The position numbers and the translations under genes are program-made. The notes under the pieces were generated by a model. The model was given only the letters and a program-made list of their open reading frames with translations. It was not told the DNA's origin and searched no databases. From Gemmatimonadales bacterium (GTDB lineage Bacteria > Gemmatimonadota > Gemmatimonadetes > Gemmatimonadales > GWC2-71-9), in assembly GCA_041613315.1 (NCBI GenBank), contig JBFJHJ010000008.1, forward strand, positions 20,544-84,543: 64,000 nucleotides of DNA. Direction: 5' to 3'. Position 1 is the stretch's first letter; the number at the start of each line of letters is the position of its first letter. This document shows, one piece after another, positions 6,058-48,510 of the stretch.

Positions 6058-7965
6058 CTACGACTCGTTCGCCGCGCGCCGAGCACGCGCAGCCTTCTTG
6101 CGCGCAATGGCCTCGAGCGCGCGCTTCCGGAGCCGAATGGCCTCCGGGGTGACCTCGATCAGCTCGTCGTCCTCGATGTACTCCAGCGCGAACTCGAGCG
6201 TGATCCGGCGCGGTGGCTCGAGCTGAATGTTCTCGTCGGACGCCGTCGTCCGCATGTTCGTCAGCTTCTTTTCTTTCGTGACGTTCACGTCCAACTCGCC
6301 CGGCCGGACATGCTCCCCCACGATCATCCCCTCGTACACCGGCTCCCCGGGCGCCACGAACATCGTCGCGCGCTCCTGCAGGTTGAACAGCGCGTACCCC
6401 ACGGCCGCCCCCTCGCGATCCGCCACGAGCACGCCTCGGCTCCGCCCCGCCAGCGGGCCGGCCCACGGCCCGTACTCGAAGAAGCGATGATGCAAGATCC
6501 CCTCGCCGCGCGTGTCCGTGAGGAACTCGGACCGGTACCCGAACAGCCCGCGCGCGGGCACCCGGAAGCGCATCCGCACCCGCCCGAACCCGGTGTTCTT
6601 CATGTCGAGCATGTCGGCGCGCCGGGGACCCAGCGACTCGATCACCGTCCCCAGCATCCCCTCCGGTACGTCAACCACCAACTCCTCGTACGGTTCCAGC
6701 CGCTCGCCGTCCGGCCCCTCCCGCGTGATCACGCGCGGCCGACTCACCTGAAACTCATAGCTCTCGCGCCGCATCGTCTCCATCAGGATCGCCAGGTGGA
6801 GCTCCCCGCGGCCCGACACCGTGAGCACGTCCGGCTGGGCGGTGTCCTCCACGCGCAGCGCCACGTTGCGCTCCAGCTCCCGATAGAGCCGGTCGCGCAC
6901 CTGCCGCGTGGTCACGAACTTCCCGGCGCGCCCCGCGAAGGGCGAGTTGTTCACCATGAAGTCCACGGAGATCGTGGGCGCCTCCACCGCGATCCCGCGG
7001 AGCCGCTCGCGCCGCGCCGGATCGGTCAAGGTCTTGCCGATCTCCACTCCCTCGAGCCCGGCGATCGCCACGATGTCACCGGCCACGGCCGCCTCCACCT
7101 CGACCCGCTCCAGCCCCTCGAAGGCATACAATCTGAGCACTCGCGCCGGTTGCTCTTCGTCCTCGGCGACGGGGCCCGGCTCGCCCAACGGCAGGAGCGC
7201 CACCGACTGGCCGACCCGTAGCCGGCCGCGCTCGATCCGCCCGATCGCCAAGCGCCCGATGTAGGGCGAGAAGTCGAGGGTCGAGACCAACATCTGGAAT
7301 GGGGCGTCCGGCGTGCCGCGGGGCTCCGGGATATGGGACACGATCGCTTCGAACAACGGCGTCAGATCCCCGCCGCCCCACCCCGCCTCGGCGGTCGGAC
7401 GGTCGGATGGTCGGGCGGTCGCATCGCCGCCCCACCCCTCCCCGACCTCATTAAACGCCACCCCATCCCGCGCCGATGCATACACGAACGGCGCATCGAG
7501 CTGCCGCTCGTCGGCCTCGAGATCCATCAGCAGCTCCAAGACGTCGTCATGCACCTCCTTGGGACGCGCATCCGGCCGATCGATCTTGTTGATCACCACC
7601 ACGGGCAGGAGCCCCAGCGCCAGCGCCTTCCGGGTGACGAACCGGGTCTGGGGCATCGGCCCCTCCGCGGCATCCACCAGGAGCAGCACGCCGTCCACCA
7701 TGCGCAACACGCGCTCCACCTCACCACCGAAATCAGCGTGGCCCGGCGTGTCCACCAGGTTGATCTTCACGGCGCCCCAGCGCACCGAGGCGTTCTTCGA
7801 CAGGATCGTAATGCCGCGCTCCCGCTCCAACGGGTTCGAGTCCATGACCCGGTCCTCGACCTGCTGGTTTGAGCGAAAGACGCCGGCCTGGCGCAGCATC
7901 TTGTCCACGAGCGTAGTCTTGCCGTGGTCGACGTGCGCGACGATCGCGATGTTGCGGATGGGCAA
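6058..7965 (-). CDS. typA: Translational GTPase TypA/BipA
   Basis: [51 protein letters not shown] motifs; TTG start. Confidence 0.97.
7371..7438. repeat. In-frame octamer-repeat insertion in typA, flanked by a 14-bp direct repeat
   Basis: cgccgccccacccc at 7371-7384 and 7425-7438; ggcggtcg gacggtcg gatggtcg ggcggtcg at 7390-7421. Confidence 0.85.
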
Positions 7966-7968
7966 CTT

Positions 7969-7995
7969 CTAAGCCCTTTATTTACAATGTGTTAG
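7969..7995. promoter_or_regulatory. AT-rich imperfect dyad (TAA-N19-TTA) upstream of typA
   Basis: ctaagccctttatttacaatgtgttag; similar element at 20424-20450. Confidence 0.4.
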
Positions 7996-8167
7996 TATTC
8001 GCGCGCCTGGGTGCGACATGCTCAAGTGGGCCAGTATAGACGGGGGCGGTACGGAACGCAAGCGGCGGCCGTCACACACGGCTCCGTGCGTCCGAGATGG
8101 GGAGCCCGTCTGCCGGGGACGGCGTCGGTCGAGGGGAGCGTTCCCCTCCAACGGCGGGGCAACGCGG

Positions 8168-9121
8168 CTACGGATCGGTCCGGTCGGCCGCGCGGTCCTC
8201 GCCGTCCGGGCATCCCTCCCCAGCCCGCTCGATCTGCATCGTCACGTGGTGGATGCCCAGGTCGGCCATGCGGTGCTGCACGGCACCCAGCACCCGCTGG
8301 TTCTGCCCCGGGTCGCCCACCACGGCGTGCCCGCTCATCGCCACGACGCCGCTGGTCACGGTCCACACATGGAGGTCGTGCACGTCGGCGACGCCGGGGA
8401 TGGACGCGATGTGCCGCTCGACGTCGCCCAGCGCGATGTGTTGCGGCGTCGCCTCGAGCAACACGTCCACGCTCTCCCGGAGGAGCCGCCACGCGCCCAC
8501 GAGGATGAGGAGCGCGATCGCGACCGAGATCAACGGATCGGCCAGCGTCCAGCCGGTGAGGAGGATGATCGCACCGGCCGTCATGGCGCCCACCGAGCCC
8601 AGCAGGTCGCTCAGGATGTGGAGGTACGCCCCCCGCACGTTGAGCGACTGCCGGTGCCCGCCGTGCAGCAGGCGCATGCCGACGAGATTGACCACGAGGC
8701 CGGCGCTCGCGACCCCGAAGAGGATGCGCGGCTCCACCGCGGGCGGCGCGGCCAGGCGGCCCACGGCGTCCCACACGATGAGGCCCGCGAGCACGAACAG
8801 CGCCGCCCCGTTGACCAGCGCCGCGAGGATCTCGAGGCGGAGGTACCCGTAGGTCTTCTCGGGTGTCGCCGGCCGCTGGGCGATCCACCCGGCGAAGAGC
8901 GCCAGCGCGAGCGCGGCGACGTCGGTGAGCATGTGGCCGGCGTCGGCAAGGAGGGCCAGGGAGTTGGCGATCACGCCGCCGGCGAACTCCACGACCATGA
9001 ACGTGGCGGTGAGGATGAGCACGAATCGCAGGGGGCGCCCGTGGCCCGCCAGCGCGGGCGTGCGGTGGGCGCACTCCAACGAGCGCTCGGGAGCGGCGGC
9101 GGGCGGCGCGCGTTCAGGCAC
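8168..9121 (-). CDS. Cation diffusion facilitator (CzcD/ZitB-like)
   Basis: SLALLADAGHMLTD, TYGYLRLEILAALVN, GAYLHILSDLLGS, VHDLHVW motifs. Confidence 0.93.
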   Translation of the reverse strand: MPERAPPAAAPERSLECAHRTPALAGHGRPLRFVLILTATFMVVEFAGGVIANSLALLADAGHMLTDVAALALALFAGWIAQRPATPEKTYGYLRLEILAALVNGAALFVLAGLIVWDAVGRLAAPPAVEPRILFGVASAGLVVNLVGMRLLHGGHRQSLNVRGAYLHILSDLLGSVGAMTAGAIILLTGWTLADPLISVAIALLILVGAWRLLRESVDVLLEATPQHIALGDVERHIASIPGVADVHDLHVWTVTSGVVAMSGHAVVGDPGQNQRVLGAVQHRMADLGIHHVTMQIERAGEGCPDGEDRAADRTDP

Positions 9122-9189
9122 GCGCCGGTCCGGCCCGGCCGTGTTTGGCGGCGGCCATCCAAGCGTTTAGCTTACCCGGTGACTTCCCT

Positions 9190-10521
9190 ATGGAAGACAT
9201 TTCCCTCCAATCGGTGCTCCTGCGGGCGGTCGCGGCCCTCGGTCTTGTAGCCGCGAACGCTTTCTTCGTCGCCGCCGAGTTCAGCCTCGTGGCGGCGCGC
9301 CGCACCCGTATCGACGCCATGGTGCGCAGGGGCGACAGAAAAGCTAAACTCGCGCAGAAGGCCATTCAATCGCTCGACCGCTACATCTCGGGCACGCAGC
9401 TCGGCATCACGGTCGCGAGCATCGGGCTGGGGTGGATCGGCGAGCCGACCATCGCCCGCGTCATCGAGGGCCTGTTCCGCGGCCTGCCGGAGCCGCTCAA
9501 CGTGGTCGCGACGCACGTCGTGGCCTCCACGATCGCGTTCATGATCATCACGTTCCTCCACGTGGTGCTGGGCGAGCTCGCGCCCAAGGCGGTGGCGCTG
9601 CTGCACCCGGAGGCCACGAGCCGCTGGGTCGCCGCCCCCCTCATCGCCTTCACCGAGGCGACCAACCCGTTCATCTGGGTGCTGAACGGCTCGGCCAACG
9701 CGCTCCTCCGGCTTTTCGGCATGCGCCCGGCCAGCGAGGCCGAGCGGGTGCACCAGCCGGAGGAGCTCGTGATGCTCGCCCGGCAGACGCAGCGCGCGGG
9801 CCAGCTCGCGACCCAGGACGTGCGCATGATCGAGGGGGTGTTCGAGTTCACCGAGAAGAACGCCCGAGACGTCATGACGCCGCGCACCGACGTGGCCGCC
9901 TTACCCGCGACGCTGACGGTGGGCGAGGTCGTCTCTCGGGTCGCCGAGGCCGGCCGGTCGCGCTACCCGGTCTACGGCGAGTCGCTGGACGACGTCGTGG
10001 GCATCGTGCACGTGAAGCAGATCCTGACCGCCCTGGCGGCGACGCCGGACGCGCCCCTCAGCACGATCATGCGCGCGCCCTTGTTCGTGCCGGGGACGCG
10101 CGAGGTGGAGGACGTGCTCACCGACATGAAACGCCTCAAGTTGCAGATGGCGGTCGTCCTGGACGAGTACGGCGGGACCGCCGGGATCGTCACGATGGAA
10201 GATCTTCTCGAGGAGATCGTGGGCGAAATCTACGACGAGTACGATGCGACGGCGCCGGCACCCGAGGTGAGCGCGGACGGGGTGATGTTGCCCGGCGACA
10301 CCGACATCGAGGACGTGAACAAGCGCTATAGCTTGAAGATCAGCGACGAGGCCTACCAGACGATCGGCGGCTACGTCTTCGGACAGCTGGGGCGGCTCCC
10401 CCGACGCGGCGACCGCGTGCACGTCAAGGGCGCCACGTTCGTCGTGACGGAGATGGACGGGCGGCGCGTCGGGAAGGTCAAGATGACCGCGACGCCGCCC
10501 GCGAAAGTGGCGGGACGGTAG
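9190..10521 (+). CDS. HlyC/CorC-family (CNNM-CBS-CorC) transporter
   Basis: NAFFVAAEFSLV, QLGIT..SIGLGWIGEP, GELAPK, CBS pair VLDEYGGTAGIVTMEDLLEEIVGEI; start chosen at ATG 9190. Confidence 0.92.
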   Translation: MEDISLQSVLLRAVAALGLVAANAFFVAAEFSLVAARRTRIDAMVRRGDRKAKLAQKAIQSLDRYISGTQLGITVASIGLGWIGEPTIARVIEGLFRGLPEPLNVVATHVVASTIAFMIITFLHVVLGELAPKAVALLHPEATSRWVAAPLIAFTEATNPFIWVLNGSANALLRLFGMRPASEAERVHQPEELVMLARQTQRAGQLATQDVRMIEGVFEFTEKNARDVMTPRTDVAALPATLTVGEVVSRVAEAGRSRYPVYGESLDDVVGIVHVKQILTALAATPDAPLSTIMRAPLFVPGTREVEDVLTDMKRLKLQMAVVLDEYGGTAGIVTMEDLLEEIVGEIYDEYDATAPAPEVSADGVMLPGDTDIEDVNKRYSLKISDEAYQTIGGYVFGQLGRLPRRGDRVHVKGATFVVTEMDGRRVGKVKMTATPPAKVAGR

Positions 10522-10545
10522 ATCACGGCGGTCCGCGGCACGAGC

Positions 10546-10577
10546 CGTCCGCCTGTCCGTCCTACCGTCTGTCCGCC
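10546..10577. repeat. Four-unit octamer repeat containing the pdxA stop codon
   Basis: cgtccgcc tgtccgtc ctaccgtc tgtccgcc. Confidence 0.8.
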
Positions 10578-11530: not shown

Positions 11531-12874
11531 TCAGAGACGGATGTCGACGTACGTGGATCGGCGCAGCTGCTCGAGATACCGCTCCATCGCATTGCGGTCG
11601 GTGAGCACGCGGCGGATGTTGTCGCGCAGGTCCTCGTAGGTGAGATCGCCGGGCGGGCGCTCCCCGATCAACAGGATGGCCGCGTAGCGCGGCGGCTGGC
11701 CCGGCTGCGAGGCCAGCTCGACCGGCGCCACCGCGTCCCCGGTCTGCGCTCCGGCCAGCGCCTCGCGGTACGTGACCGGCAGGCTGTCGCGCGGGACGTC
11801 TTCGAGCAGCGACGCTTCCCGCTGATCGTGCACGTTCCGGACCAGGGAGTCGAAGCGGGTGCCGGTCCGCAGGATCTCGGCCACCTCTTCCGCGCGCGCC
11901 CTGGCTCGCGCCAGGTCGTCCGGCGTGAGCTCGGGAATGAACAGGATGTGCCGCACCAGCACCTCCGCCGGCTGCGCGCGATCCACCTTGATCACGTGGA
12001 AGCCGAACGGCGACCGGATCGGCGGCGACACGACGCCCGGACGCATGCGGAAGGCCACGGCCTCGAACTCCGGCACCAGCTGGCCTCGCCGCACCCAGCC
12101 GATCAGCCCGCCCTGTTCGCGCGATCCGGGATCTCCGGAGAAACGGCGCGCCGCGGCGGCGAAGTCGCCTCCTCGGCGCAGCGCCTGGGTTACACTGTCG
12201 GCGAGCCGGAAACTGGTCATCAGCGCCGCGCTGTCCGGTTCCGGCCGGATGGTGATCTGGCGCAAGGTCACGGTGGCCGGGCGCCGCGGCTGGCGGCCCT
12301 TATTAGCCTCGTAGAACGCCCGCATCTCCGACTCCGTGGGCGGAAGCGGCGTGATCTTTCCCGTCTGGCGGAGACGCTGGAGCAGACTCTCGCGAAGCAA
12401 CTCGCGGCGTTTCTGATCTGTCAGCCAGCGGCGGTATTCCTCCGCCGTGCCGAACCCCGCTTGGCGCAGCTCGCGCTGGTAGTCGCTCTCGGAGGCGAAC
12501 TGGCGCCGCACCTGCTGGATCGCCTGGTCCACCTCGATCTGGATGTCCTGCTCCGTGACCTTGACGTTGGTGTCCCGAGTCGCCGCCTGAACGATCAGCT
12601 CGTCATCGATGATCTGGTCGAGGAGGTCGCGACGCAGCTGCGCGAGCGCTGCGGAGTCGGTCGGGAAGTCGCCACCCCGCTGGGCGCGCAGGACATTCAA
12701 CTCCTCGTCCACGCGCGACCGCGCAATCGGCGTACTCCCCACGACCGCCACGATCCGGTCGACCAGAACGAAGCCGGAATCGCGGGCCGCGGGAGGGCCG
12801 ATGCTGTCCTGCGCCGCCGCGGGGGTGGCGGTCAGGGCGATGACGCCCGCGAGCAGCGTGGCGCTACGGACCAC
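11531..12874 (-). CDS. surA: SurA-like periplasmic chaperone / peptidyl-prolyl isomerase
   Basis: Signal peptide, VDRIVAVVG SurA N-domain, parvulin motifs (FSGDPGS..GG..G; FGFHVIKV), lies upstream of pdxA. Confidence 0.8.
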   Translation of the reverse strand: MVRSATLLAGVIALTATPAAAQDSIGPPAARDSGFVLVDRIVAVVGSTPIARSRVDEELNVLRAQRGGDFPTDSAALAQLRRDLLDQIIDDELIVQAATRDTNVKVTEQDIQIEVDQAIQQVRRQFASESDYQRELRQAGFGTAEEYRRWLTDQKRRELLRESLLQRLRQTGKITPLPPTESEMRAFYEANKGRQPRRPATVTLRQITIRPEPDSAALMTSFRLADSVTQALRRGGDFAAAARRFSGDPGSREQGGLIGWVRRGQLVPEFEAVAFRMRPGVVSPPIRSPFGFHVIKVDRAQPAEVLVRHILFIPELTPDDLARARARAEEVAEILRTGTRFDSLVRNVHDQREASLLEDVPRDSLPVTYREALAGAQTGDAVAPVELASQPGQPPRYAAILLIGERPPGDLTYEDLRDNIRRVLTDRNAMERYLEQLRRSTYVDIRL

Positions 12875-24481: not shown

Positions 24482-24513
24482 GGCGGTCGGACGGTAGGGC
24501 GGTCAGGCGGTCT
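24482..24513 (+). repeat. Four-unit octamer repeat
   Basis: ggcggtcg gacggtag ggcggtca ggcggtct. Confidence 0.85.
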
Positions 24514-24633: not shown

Positions 24634-24665
24634 TGCCCGTCTGCCCGCCCGTCCGTCTGTCCGCC
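24634..24665 (-). repeat. Four-unit octamer repeat, inverted relative to 24482-24513
   Basis: tgcccgtc tgcccgcc cgtccgtc tgtccgcc. Confidence 0.85.
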
Positions 24666-36794: not shown

Positions 36795-38164
36795 TGACAT
36801 CATCGCGCCATCATATGGTCATCATAGCGGCACTTGCCATGCTTCCGGGCGCATTGCCAGCTCAGGCGCAGGGGCCCGACCGCGGCGGAGATCGTCAGGC
36901 GCCGCTCACGCTGCACGGGGCGGTCCAGCGGGCGCTCGAGACGCACCCGGCCCTCTCGGCGGCCCGCGCCGCTCACGACGCGGCCGGCCAGGCGGTCGGG
37001 ATCGCCACTGCCGAGCGCTTCCCACAGCTCACGGTCCAGGCGGGGCTCACGCGGTTCGAAGAGCCGATGATCGTGGCACCGCTGCATGGCTTCGATCCCG
37101 CGCGGCCTCCCGAGTTCTCCCGCACGCTGACGGGTGGCGCCCTCGGCTTCAGCTACGCGCTGTTCGACGGCGGCGCGCGGGGAGCGCGGGTCGCGGGCGC
37201 TCAGGCCGACGCGCGGGCGGCGGCGGCGGCGCTGGGCGCCGCGGAGTCCGAACTCATGGCCGTCGTCGCCCGCACGTACCTCGCAGCGCTCAGCGCCCGG
37301 GACGTGCTCGACGCACAGCGGCAGGGGGTTGCGGCGCTCGAGGCCGAGCGCGACCGCGTGCAGCAGCTCCTGGCTGCGGGAAGCGCCGCCCAGGTACAGC
37401 TCCTGCGCGTGCGCGCGGCGCTGGCCGAGGCGGAAGCAGCCCGCGTCTCGGCGGCCGCCGCGCTCGACCTCGCCGAGCGCGGTCTCGCCCGGCTGCTCGG
37501 GGTCGATGCAGCGACGACCCGGACCGACCGTCTCGCGGCCGTGACGCTCGCCGACACGATCCCGGGTGAGCGCGACGATCTGCTCGTCCGCGCCGGTGCA
37601 TCGAACGATCGGATCGAGCAGGCCCGGTGGCGGATGGACGCGGCACGGCGCGACCACCGCGCCGCCGTGGCCGCGTGGTTCCCGCGGCTCGATGTGGTGG
37701 GGGGGTATCAGGGGTTCGGCACGACGGCCGAAGTCACGGCGGAGTGGCAGGCGGGCGTGCGGCTCAGCTATGCGCTCTTTGCCGGCGGCGGCCGGGCGCG
37801 CCGTGTGGCCGCCGCCACTGCCCGGCAGCGAGCGGCGGAAGAGCGGCTCCGGCTCACCGAGCTGGAGACCGCCCAGGCGGTGGACGGGGCGCTCTCGGCG
37901 GTATGGGAGTCCCGAGCCCGCGTCGCGGCCCACGAGTCCGCCGTGCGACATCTCACCGAGGTCGCCCGTATCGAGCTGCTGACCCTCGAAGCTGGGGCCG
38001 GCACCGAGGCCGACTTCCTCCAGGCGGAGGCGGCGGCCCGCCGCGCACGGGCCGCGCTCGCAGACGTGCGCCACGCGGAGATCGGCGCTCGCGTCGAGCT
38101 CGCGCGCCTCACGGGCGAGCTCACCCCCGCCTGGCTCACGCGCGTGCTGGAGAACCGACCATGA
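36794..38164 (+). CDS. TolC-family outer-membrane efflux protein
   Basis: Signal peptide; LTLHGAVQRAL..HP, FPQL, LFDGG, FPRL OEP repeats. Confidence 0.88.
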   Translation: MTSSRHHMVIIAALAMLPGALPAQAQGPDRGGDRQAPLTLHGAVQRALETHPALSAARAAHDAAGQAVGIATAERFPQLTVQAGLTRFEEPMIVAPLHGFDPARPPEFSRTLTGGALGFSYALFDGGARGARVAGAQADARAAAAALGAAESELMAVVARTYLAALSARDVLDAQRQGVAALEAERDRVQQLLAAGSAAQVQLLRVRAALAEAEAARVSAAAALDLAERGLARLLGVDAATTRTDRLAAVTLADTIPGERDDLLVRAGASNDRIEQARWRMDAARRDHRAAVAAWFPRLDVVGGYQGFGTTAEVTAEWQAGVRLSYALFAGGGRARRVAAATARQRAAEERLRLTELETAQAVDGALSAVWESRARVAAHESAVRHLTEVARIELLTLEAGAGTEADFLQAEAAARRARAALADVRHAEIGARVELARLTGELTPAWLTRVLENRP

Positions 38165-47244: not shown

Positions 47245-48510
47245 ATGCGCATCGCATTACTGGTCTTGATCGCGCTCGGCACCGGAGCCGTCGCACCGGC
47301 CGTGGCGGCCGCCCAGGGCCTGGAGCAGCGGACCGATTCGCTCGAGCGCGAAATCCGGCTTCTGCGGGCCCGAATCGACTCGTTGGTACGCGTGCTCGAG
47401 CGCCTCACACGCGAAGACCGCGACACCACCCCGGCGCGCGACGAGTTGGCGGCGCTCCGGGCCGCCGCCAGGGCGGCCGCGGCCCGCCCCGATACGGCCC
47501 AGGCCCCGGAACCGCAGTTCGTCAACCGGGCTGACAACCTGAACCGCCTCAACCCCGAGATCAGCGTCACGGGGGACGTACGCTTCACGGCAACCAGGCC
47601 CGGGCCGCAGCAGGACAATGTGGACCTCCGCGAGTTCGAGTTCTCCTTCCAGTCCGCGCTCGATCCCTTCGCCCGCACCAAGATCTTCCTCGCGTTCGAA
47701 GAAGGGGAGATCGACCTGGAGGAGGCGTACGCGTACTGGACCGGCCTGCCCGGCGGGTTCCGAATCGATGCGGGCCGGCTCCGCCAGCAGGTGGGCGAGC
47801 TCAACCGCTGGCACTTGCACGCGCTTCCGGAATCGGAGTACCCGCTCGTGCTTCGGGAGTACTTCGGCGAGGAAGGGCTCATCGGCAACGGGCTGCGCGT
47901 ATACTGGCTCGCGCCGTTCAGCGGTGTCGGGACAGGTACCCATGAGCTGTGGGGCGAGGTGACCGTTGCGGACAACGACGTGCTGTTCGACGGCGGGAAC
48001 CGCCTCGCGGTTCTCGGTCACGTCAAGAACTTCTGGCAGGTGAGCCGCTCCGTCTTCGTCCAGCTGGGGGGCACGGCAATGTACGGCCGCAACCCCGACG
48101 CCGACCTCCGCACCCGGGTGTTGGGCGGTGACGTTCGGTTGTCGTGGCGCCCCCCGGCTGACGCGTTATACCGGTCGTTCACGCTGCGCGGGGAGGGTTA
48201 CGCGGTGCGGCGACTGGACGCCGGCGTTGGGGACACCCGCTACGGCGGCTACGTGAGCGCCGAGTATCAGCTTTCCCGTCGCCTGTTCCTCGGCGGCCGC
48301 TTGGACTACGTCGAGCCGCTCGGCACGGCGGATCCCGCCACGTGGGCCGTGGTGCCGAGACTCACGTGGTGGCAGAGCGAGTGGGTGTATCTCAAGGCCG
48401 AGTGGCAACGCGCCTCGACGCCCCTGGCCGGCGGCGGGCGCGACACGAGCGATCGGTTTGTCCTTCAGGCGGTCTGGGCCATCGGACCGCACAAACACGA
48501 GACGTACTGA
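47245..48510 (+). CDS. Outer-membrane beta-barrel (porin-like) associated with metal uptake
   Basis: Signal peptide, short coiled coil, LNPEISV, alternating beta strands, His-containing C-terminus IGPHKHETY. Confidence 0.75.
   Translation: MRIALLVLIALGTGAVAPAVAAAQGLEQRTDSLEREIRLLRARIDSLVRVLERLTREDRDTTPARDELAALRAAARAAAARPDTAQAPEPQFVNRADNLNRLNPEISVTGDVRFTATRPGPQQDNVDLREFEFSFQSALDPFARTKIFLAFEEGEIDLEEAYAYWTGLPGGFRIDAGRLRQQVGELNRWHLHALPESEYPLVLREYFGEEGLIGNGLRVYWLAPFSGVGTGTHELWGEVTVADNDVLFDGGNRLAVLGHVKNFWQVSRSVFVQLGGTAMYGRNPDADLRTRVLGGDVRLSWRPPADALYRSFTLRGEGYAVRRLDAGVGDTRYGGYVSAEYQLSRRLFLGGRLDYVEPLGTADPATWAVVPRLTWWQSEWVYLKAEWQRASTPLAGGGRDTSDRFVLQAVWAIGPHKHETY

Follow-up and report, generated by a model that had tools for sequence, protein, structure and literature searches.

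An octamer array in a variable loop of TypA from a Gemmatimonadales bacterium and the repeat family to which it belongs

The typA gene of a Gemmatimonadales bacterium carries an in-frame insert holding four tandem octamers that is a member of a dispersed GRCGGWCR octamer family of the same genome, and the post-G5 loop that it lengthens is a recurrent sink in Gemmatimonadales for differing 7- and 8-base repeats. A 14-bp sequence duplicated on either side of the array goes beyond chance and is peculiar to this insert, being neither a trait of the family nor a general mini-transposon footprint. The insert is a real example of a known, still unexplained class of arrays.

The insert and its host gene

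The insert lies in the window, a stretch of 64,000 nucleotides from a 2.63-Mb assembly with 70% G+C that is 83% complete (G000); feature coordinates are given in Table 1. Named homologues come mostly from Gemmatimonadota and Gemmatimonadales. Its post-G5 loop comprises 34 residues, versus 14 in 30 of 47 parsed relatives and likewise 14 in the equivalent loop of Escherichia coli BipA (structure alignment, 5a9v). The original prediction had 18 residues added in frame to a G-domain loop, and this proved correct: the frame is open across the insert, with 18 extra codons and no stop. On the BipA structure the loop that holds the insert directly follows a SAR motif that aligns to residues 166–168 (SAL) of the E. 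coli protein, which are described as part of a base-binding pocket (PMC4543647). The accompanying expectation that removal of the insert would restore a loop of about the usual length did not hold, as 16 residues would be left where 14 are usual and no loop of 15–17 residues was seen. In an AlphaFold2 model from a 61-sequence alignment the pLDDT is below 50 at residues 180–185 and 188–197 and above 90 on either side; the site is a tolerant surface loop of the G domain, modelled with low confidence. Loop lengths range from 14 to 66 residues, and neither length nor sequence is kept even between near sisters, the loop units being unlike in L144 and L159 and, as judged by peptide, in P0006 and P0098. 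Matches to typA fall in pieces in G001:C266, G032:C9 and G020:C4, where there may be frameshifts or a broken second copy.

The 14-mer CGCCGCCCCACCCC occurs twice at a spacing of 54 bp around four octamers, just as had been noticed at the outset. The octamers are, in order, GGCGGTCG GACGGTCG GATGGTCG GGCGGTCG, and an alternative register (7393–7424, 32 bp) gives the four units GGTCGGAC GGTCGGAT GGTCGGGC GGTCGCAT. The duplication lengthens to 16 of 17 and then to 19 of 22 identical positions; since the match extends to 22 bases, the 54-bp period is 22 + 32 or else 14 + 40, with a unique part of 32 or 40 bp that is a whole number of 8-bp units, a coincidence with a chance of one in eight by itself. 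Random 32-bp brackets gave a repeat of at least 14 bp in 2 of 5000 trials, and Trp-containing 4-mers recur 10–34 residues downstream in 10 of 40151 cases. The copy at the 5' end of the loop in the coding sense occupies the position of the G-rich arm in relatives with inverted pairs; the typA array itself is a solitary arm and not an inverted pair. No second copy of the 54-bp unit was found in G000, where only the periodic core recurs, over at most 31 bp. The best matches to the array within the genome are the arrays in ffh (26 of 28 positions) and ftsK (25 of 27), and all three encode the peptide RPSDRPTA. The 18 inserted residues are probably a neutral, disordered passenger.

Contigs from three runs (X1, X3 and X4) cross the insert free of gaps with 0, 0 and 1 differing letters, these runs belonging to one study that may represent the source DNA itself. 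Among the gaps listed for the run contigs, in which rare variants are lost, none is of 54 bp, and among the pieces listed for a run from another study (X5) none crosses the insert; no RNA run was listed as containing the sequence. A contig joint listed at 7420–10549 (31-letter side), which links two arrays, was taken as a repeat match and set aside.

Table 1. Coordinates of the typA insert, its host gene and other repeat arrays (positions lacking a prefix are those of the window).
Feature	Position	Strand	Details
typA/bipA, translational GTPase, 635 aa, intact host gene	6058..7965	-	ORF; TIGR01394 878 bits (above cut-off of 757 bits); E. coli BipA structures, E 4e-197
Variable post-G5 loop, residues 167-200, 34 aa	7366..7467	-	Codon map, loop lengths, alignment to 5a9v, pLDDT
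Duplicated 14-mer CGCCGCCCCACCCC, loop 3' end in coding sense	7371..7384	+	Encodes GWGG; extends to 7392, 19/22 identity
Duplicated 14-mer CGCCGCCCCACCCC, loop 5' end in coding sense	7425..7438	+	Encodes GWGG; extends to 7446
Four-unit octamer array, GGCGGTCG family	7390..7421	+	Encodes RPSDRPTA; C-rich arm on coding strand
Sister array at gene end	10546..10577	-	Longest flanking bracket 4 bp, no duplication
Intergenic inverted arrays, same family	24482-24509, 24634-24665	+, -	No flanking duplication
ffh, in-frame inverted octamer pair, NG-domain region (L191)	G000:C14:21075-21149		
ftsK, in-frame octamer array	G000:C19:55230-55257		
DASS symporter, in-frame octamer array	G000:C3:55825-55856		
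dnaE2 and gene beside it, in-frame octamer arrays	G000:C18:43600-43631, 48102-48164		
lhr (two) and one unassigned protein, in-frame octamer arrays	G000:C45:9116-9150, 10306-10333, 12227-12246		
cysS, short in-frame octamer array	G000:C1:136922-136941		
Contig-edge ORF, in-frame octamer array	G000:C51:1276-1343		
Heptamer family sites	G000:C19:56928-57023, C2:69117-69239, C14:58263-58322, C26:38325-38401		
Spacer arrays after tRNA-Met in relatives	L284, L288, L289, L291-L293, L295, L300, L302-L304		

The octamer family and the loops that receive arrays

That the octamers are dispersed and also intergenic, as had been claimed, is borne out by 27 arrays of at least six GRCG/GWCR-type tetramers in G000, versus 0, 1 and 0 in three shuffled genomes. 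By the gene calls made here (92% coding), 10 are intergenic, 7 lie at gene edges and 10 are internal to genes. The octamer pattern was counted 12 times in G000 and not at all in the control, and is present in 21 of 61 genomes with up to 208 matches each. Inverted pairs make up 7 of 25 elements in G000, the other 18 being solitary arms, and 9 of 21 in a relative (G003); the G-rich arm comes first in every pair detected by script. The family has the features of the dispersed hepta/octamer class, namely many arrays above chance, frequent inverted pairs, and mostly intergenic or gene-edge locations with some copies within genes. Internal arrays in ftsK, dnaE2, lhr and a DASS symporter are in frame, as are an inverted pair in ffh and a shorter array in cysS; homologues that are shorter at the array site are shown for typA, ffh and cysS only.

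Several other repeats were observed in these genomes. A separate heptamer family in G000 (GTGAAAA, CGGAAAA and their kin) includes some inverted pairs at gene junctions, and an intergenic tandem at G000:C28:1031-1140 has several copies of a 23-bp unit. A higher-order tandem of about 42 bp (L297; G142:C5 near 37190-37260) has a unit composed of a CCCCACCCC tract and an octamer arm. Judged by eye, octamer arms in L283 (G027) and L310 (G003) seem to occupy matching positions close to the 3' end of an orthologous gene. Octamer arrays, mostly inverted pairs, are found in 11 of 200 relatives in the spacer that follows tRNA-Met within a conserved Ala-Gly-Met-Val tRNA cluster, and an octamer pair follows a similar tRNA end at G000:C11:38012-38081.

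Strong period-7/8 arrays (score of at least 0.8) are present in 20 of 52 distinct TypA loops of at least 20 residues, the window included, and in none of 83 loops of 14 residues, 9 loops of 18–19 residues or 466 control windows; the sample, whose members were gathered through resemblance to the query or through a pattern match and in which identical loops were counted once, is biased to long loops. The other 32 long loops lack strong 7/8 periodicity, so that the loop is hypervariable whether or not it holds an array. The original prediction had been staked on relatives not carrying equally long loops devoid of octamer periodicity; such loops do exist, side by side with the 20 in which periodicity is evident. 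In-frame inverted octamer pairs with the G-rich arm first occupy the loop at L142, L143, L144, L148, L159, L169, L170, L176 and L186. The array family in the loop follows that of the host genome: G038, G044 and G046 have GGTGTNR heptamers in the TypA loop, and this pattern matches their genomes 6, 16 and 33 times with no octamer match, the reverse of G000 with its 12 octamer matches and no GGTGTNR. Repeat load by itself does not predict invasion of the loop, as four octamer-rich genomes (G003, 208 matches; G019, 33; G020, 24; G022, 103) nevertheless have a 14-residue TypA loop. The loop of ffh is used in a similar way, with 7/8-mer arrays in 5 of 16 parsed relatives at a score of 0.8 and in 9 of 16 at 0.7.

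In a tree built without the loop from 41 chosen rows (P0006 being unlabelled for want of DNA), it takes 8 changes to account for the 12 octamer-type loops, each of them imposed by well supported branches, and a single change was obtained in 0% of bootstrap trees. The clustering of octamer labels is near that of shuffled labels (29 of 500 as low), and gains are thus indistinguishable from losses. The branch leading to G000 itself is long and unresolved, and the searches yielded no congeneric genome. A metagenome scan of 80 loci, 30 of which were unparsed, added only one long loop. Unparsed TypA rows numbered 3 of 50 in the relative set, 3 of 120 in the protein set and 10 of 60 in a further set (7 of these not typA-like). 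Parsing likewise failed for 5 of 21 ffh loci and, among cysS relatives, for 3 of 5.

Origin of the insert and of the flanking duplication

The account towards which these results lean, if by a modest degree, is that a one-off repair or slippage event copied one four-unit arm into the tolerant loop. The arm would have been copied from a different array while repair or fork restart was under way at the G-tract GGGGTGGGG; re-annealing of the strand 14–22 nt back may then have duplicated the Gly-Trp-Gly-Gly codons on either side of a whole number of units. The duplication would then be a by-product of a single event, with no target length set by an enzyme, and the product would have been retained because the 54 bp divide by three, no stop arises when the arm is read in this frame, and the protein can do without the loop.

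An empty site with one 14-bp copy, which the original prediction had expected in relatives, was not found: no loop of 15–17 residues is present among 144 distinct DNA loops or in 117 parsed proteins, and an empty-loop pattern, whose fixed parts fit 18 of 23 comparable loops and for which there was no positive control, had no match in 401 genomes of the order. The insertion event is therefore reconstructed and not seen. At other arrays the longest exact flanking repeat is 8 bp (the 26 others in G000), 6 bp (21 near-perfect elements in G003) or 7 bp (19 further TypA loops with arrays), lengths that are all inside the random range. Exact repeats of at least 14 bp at 30–100 bp number 27 in G000, mostly free of arrays, versus 5–18 in codon-shuffled genomes, so that short local duplication is a background process. 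The heptamer CCACCCC is present in the 5' flank of 3 of 16 arms in G000 and 3 of 46 arms elsewhere, where about 0.35% is expected per 20 bp. Matches to the CCCACCCC motif across 201 genomes number 34, of which 11 correspond to the tRNA-Met 3' end and one more is an overlap; its role as an element end or preferred target was not upheld, the remaining 22 comparing with 12 for a reverse-complement control (p = 0.12). A second motif of the CCCACCCC type follows 7 of 13 solitary arms versus 19 of 261 in the background, a post hoc count that includes one locus twice and is confounded by Gly-Trp/Gly-Val codons and low complexity.

A possible history, though not a likely one, is that an older inverted pair was inherited in the loop and the array is its remaining C-rich arm, the G-rich arm having later been overwritten with sequence copied from the G-rich 3' flank. 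In that event there was never a 16-residue empty site and the array predates the duplication, which is consistent with the failure to find loops of 15–17 residues. Many relatives have inverted octamer pairs in the loop with the G-rich arm leading, the script-detected pairs (9 in G003, 7 in G000) share one polarity, and the typA array is the second arm, with the 5' GWGG copy at the position of the first. The peptide DATARP.DRP.A is common to G110 and RPSDRPTA to P0006; however, a common peptide follows from a unit read in one frame, these two are not sisters of G000, and G110 groups with array-free loops of 18 residues. The two best TypA matches (G008 and G025, 81%) also have 18-residue loops without arrays, and the prevalence of solitary arms elsewhere in G000 further argues against the loss of a partner arm.

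It is improbable that the insert is a mobile micro-element with an enzyme-made 14-bp target duplication, the arrays being non-autonomous arms of a cassette such as a four-helix-bundle unit. In favour of this are the perfect 14-bp repeat and the whole number of units that it encloses; moreover, removal of the unit places a Trp at loop position 12, five from the end, both of which are seen by eye in relatives. Genes of the four-helix-bundle family PF05635 are present in 49 of 61 genomes, and those of relatives have 7/8-mer arrays within 200 bp on one side in 18 of 20 cases and on both sides in 10 of 20, as opposed to 0.6% of random windows. The octamer family of the window brackets such a gene in G003, G020 and G022, which are 3 of 20 genes fetched from octamer-rich genomes; both arms were recognized by the tetramer rule in G003 and G020, and in G022 there are period-8 arrays on both sides. 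Against this, searches of G000, which is 83% complete and in which GxxExxY, RAYT and DUF559 genes were sought besides four-helix-bundle genes, found none of six candidate partner families (PF05635, TIGR02436, PF13366, TIGR04256, PF01797 (RAYT, Y1_Tnp, the gene expected with REP/REPIN elements) and PF04480). The 54-bp unit has no second copy, the other arrays in G000, in G003 and in TypA loops lack a comparable duplication, and local repeats of this length arise mostly away from arrays. Of the mobile element first proposed, the membership of a repeat family and the reality of the duplication stand, whereas a defined 54-bp unit marked by a target duplication is not supported. A MITE or other transposon forming target-site duplications was rejected on the same grounds (duplication at 1 of 27 arrays in G000, 0 of 21 in G003 and 0 of 19 other TypA loops), as well as for the lack of fixed ends with terminal inverted repeats or of full-length copies, the periodic core of at most 31 bp being all that recurs, and for the solitary arm.

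Inverted 7/8-mer arrays of many different units flank PF05635 genes of relatives at L243-L262, L263, L280 and L282, and a single genome can have several units (for example G007, L267-L274). It is conceivable, if doubtful, that the 7/8-mer arrays of Gemmatimonadales are the arms of an undescribed selfish cassette, a four-helix-bundle gene enclosed by inverted arrays, from which gene-less arms are copied into coding loops, the typA insert with its four units at the GGGGTGGGG tract and its 14–22-bp duplication being a rare undecayed footprint. Were this true, the TypA loop behind G5 would act as a natural trap, preserving for each lineage a record of the repeat family that was active.

Selection for the extension, either as a Trp-anchored flexible arm or as an mRNA hairpin or G-quadruplex that tunes TypA, is very unlikely. 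Trp recurs near both ends of long-group loops by eye, and each flank is a cluster of three G4 runs, the genome having 40 such clusters in all, but a canonical short-loop G4 motif is absent from typA, the RNA fold has a z of −1.46 with 15 of 200 shuffles equally good, Rfam gives no family on the insert (one sub-threshold snoRNA match lies outside it), and loop sequence and length vary even between near sisters. An assembly artefact or a chance likeness in DNA of 70% G+C, where codon-shuffled genomes do yield exact repeats of this kind, is scarcely credible given three separately assembled runs that cross the insert without gaps, an intact frame, and an array and a duplication that are both far above controls.

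Related arrays in other bacteria and significance

The closest published case is that of the paired hepta- and octamer arrays of Geobacter metallireducens, in so far as the portion of that report drawn on here describes them (Aklujkar et al., 2009; PMC2700814). Four-unit heptamer elements are found there at 49 intergenic and intragenic places, together with four-unit octamer sites in opposite-strand pairs at variable distance, and the arrays were interpreted as binding sites for regulators or as RNAs. The present arrays similarly have four tandem units of 7 or 8 nt and in some cases are paired on opposite strands or lie in genes; they differ in unit sequence, and that portion of the report mentions neither a flanking duplication nor repeated use of one protein loop. 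The GGGNATC heptamers of Xanthomonas and Nostoc (mode of four units, frequent convergent inverted pairs, 7–11% intragenic; Rehm et al., 2015; PMC4692102) and the TAACTGA repeats of Beggiatoaceae, whose copies within ORFs are mainly at protein ends (MacGregor, 2015; PMC4679880), are likewise dispersed short arrays. Peptides encoded by the Beggiatoaceae repeats, such as LSVISYQ, resemble loops in TypA homologues (P0034). Unlike in these two families, the unit in G000 is an octamer, and genes enclose 10 of the 27 arrays, several of these being in essential proteins.

Rickettsia palindromic elements, to which the insert had been likened, are about 150 bp long and encode a conserved peptide in frame within unrelated housekeeping proteins (reviewed in PMC10969869). 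The likeness holds for the outcome, in that repeat DNA is translated in frame in unrelated genes (here typA, ffh, ftsK, cysS, dnaE2, lhr and DASS), but not for the structure, which is a periodic arm of 32–40 bp in 54 bp with variable unit order, no palindrome and no fixed ends. The peptides encoded by the octamer arrays vary with frame and family, in place of the one conserved peptide of the Rickettsia elements.

The cyanobacterial small dispersed repeats and STRR of Elhai et al. (2008) are reportedly very short, tandem and possibly mobile. They share these properties with the arrays in G000; their units are longer, at about 20 bp (as cited in PMC2884548). No papers on 7/8-mer arrays in Gemmatimonadota or in TypA were found in the open-access literature searched.

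The spread of bacterial 7/8-mer arrays is an open question, to which the present case adds the repeatedly colonized post-G5 loop of TypA and a test of target duplication that gave a negative result. Since the typA site is probably neutral and the duplication is not general, the lesson from this single locus is limited. The loops of TypA and Ffh are nonetheless orthologous sites at which arrays of different families turn over faster than the protein diverges, so that the arrival of arrays can be studied through filled versus empty alleles. In both loops, repeat DNA supplies new disordered sequence to essential proteins of translation and secretion.
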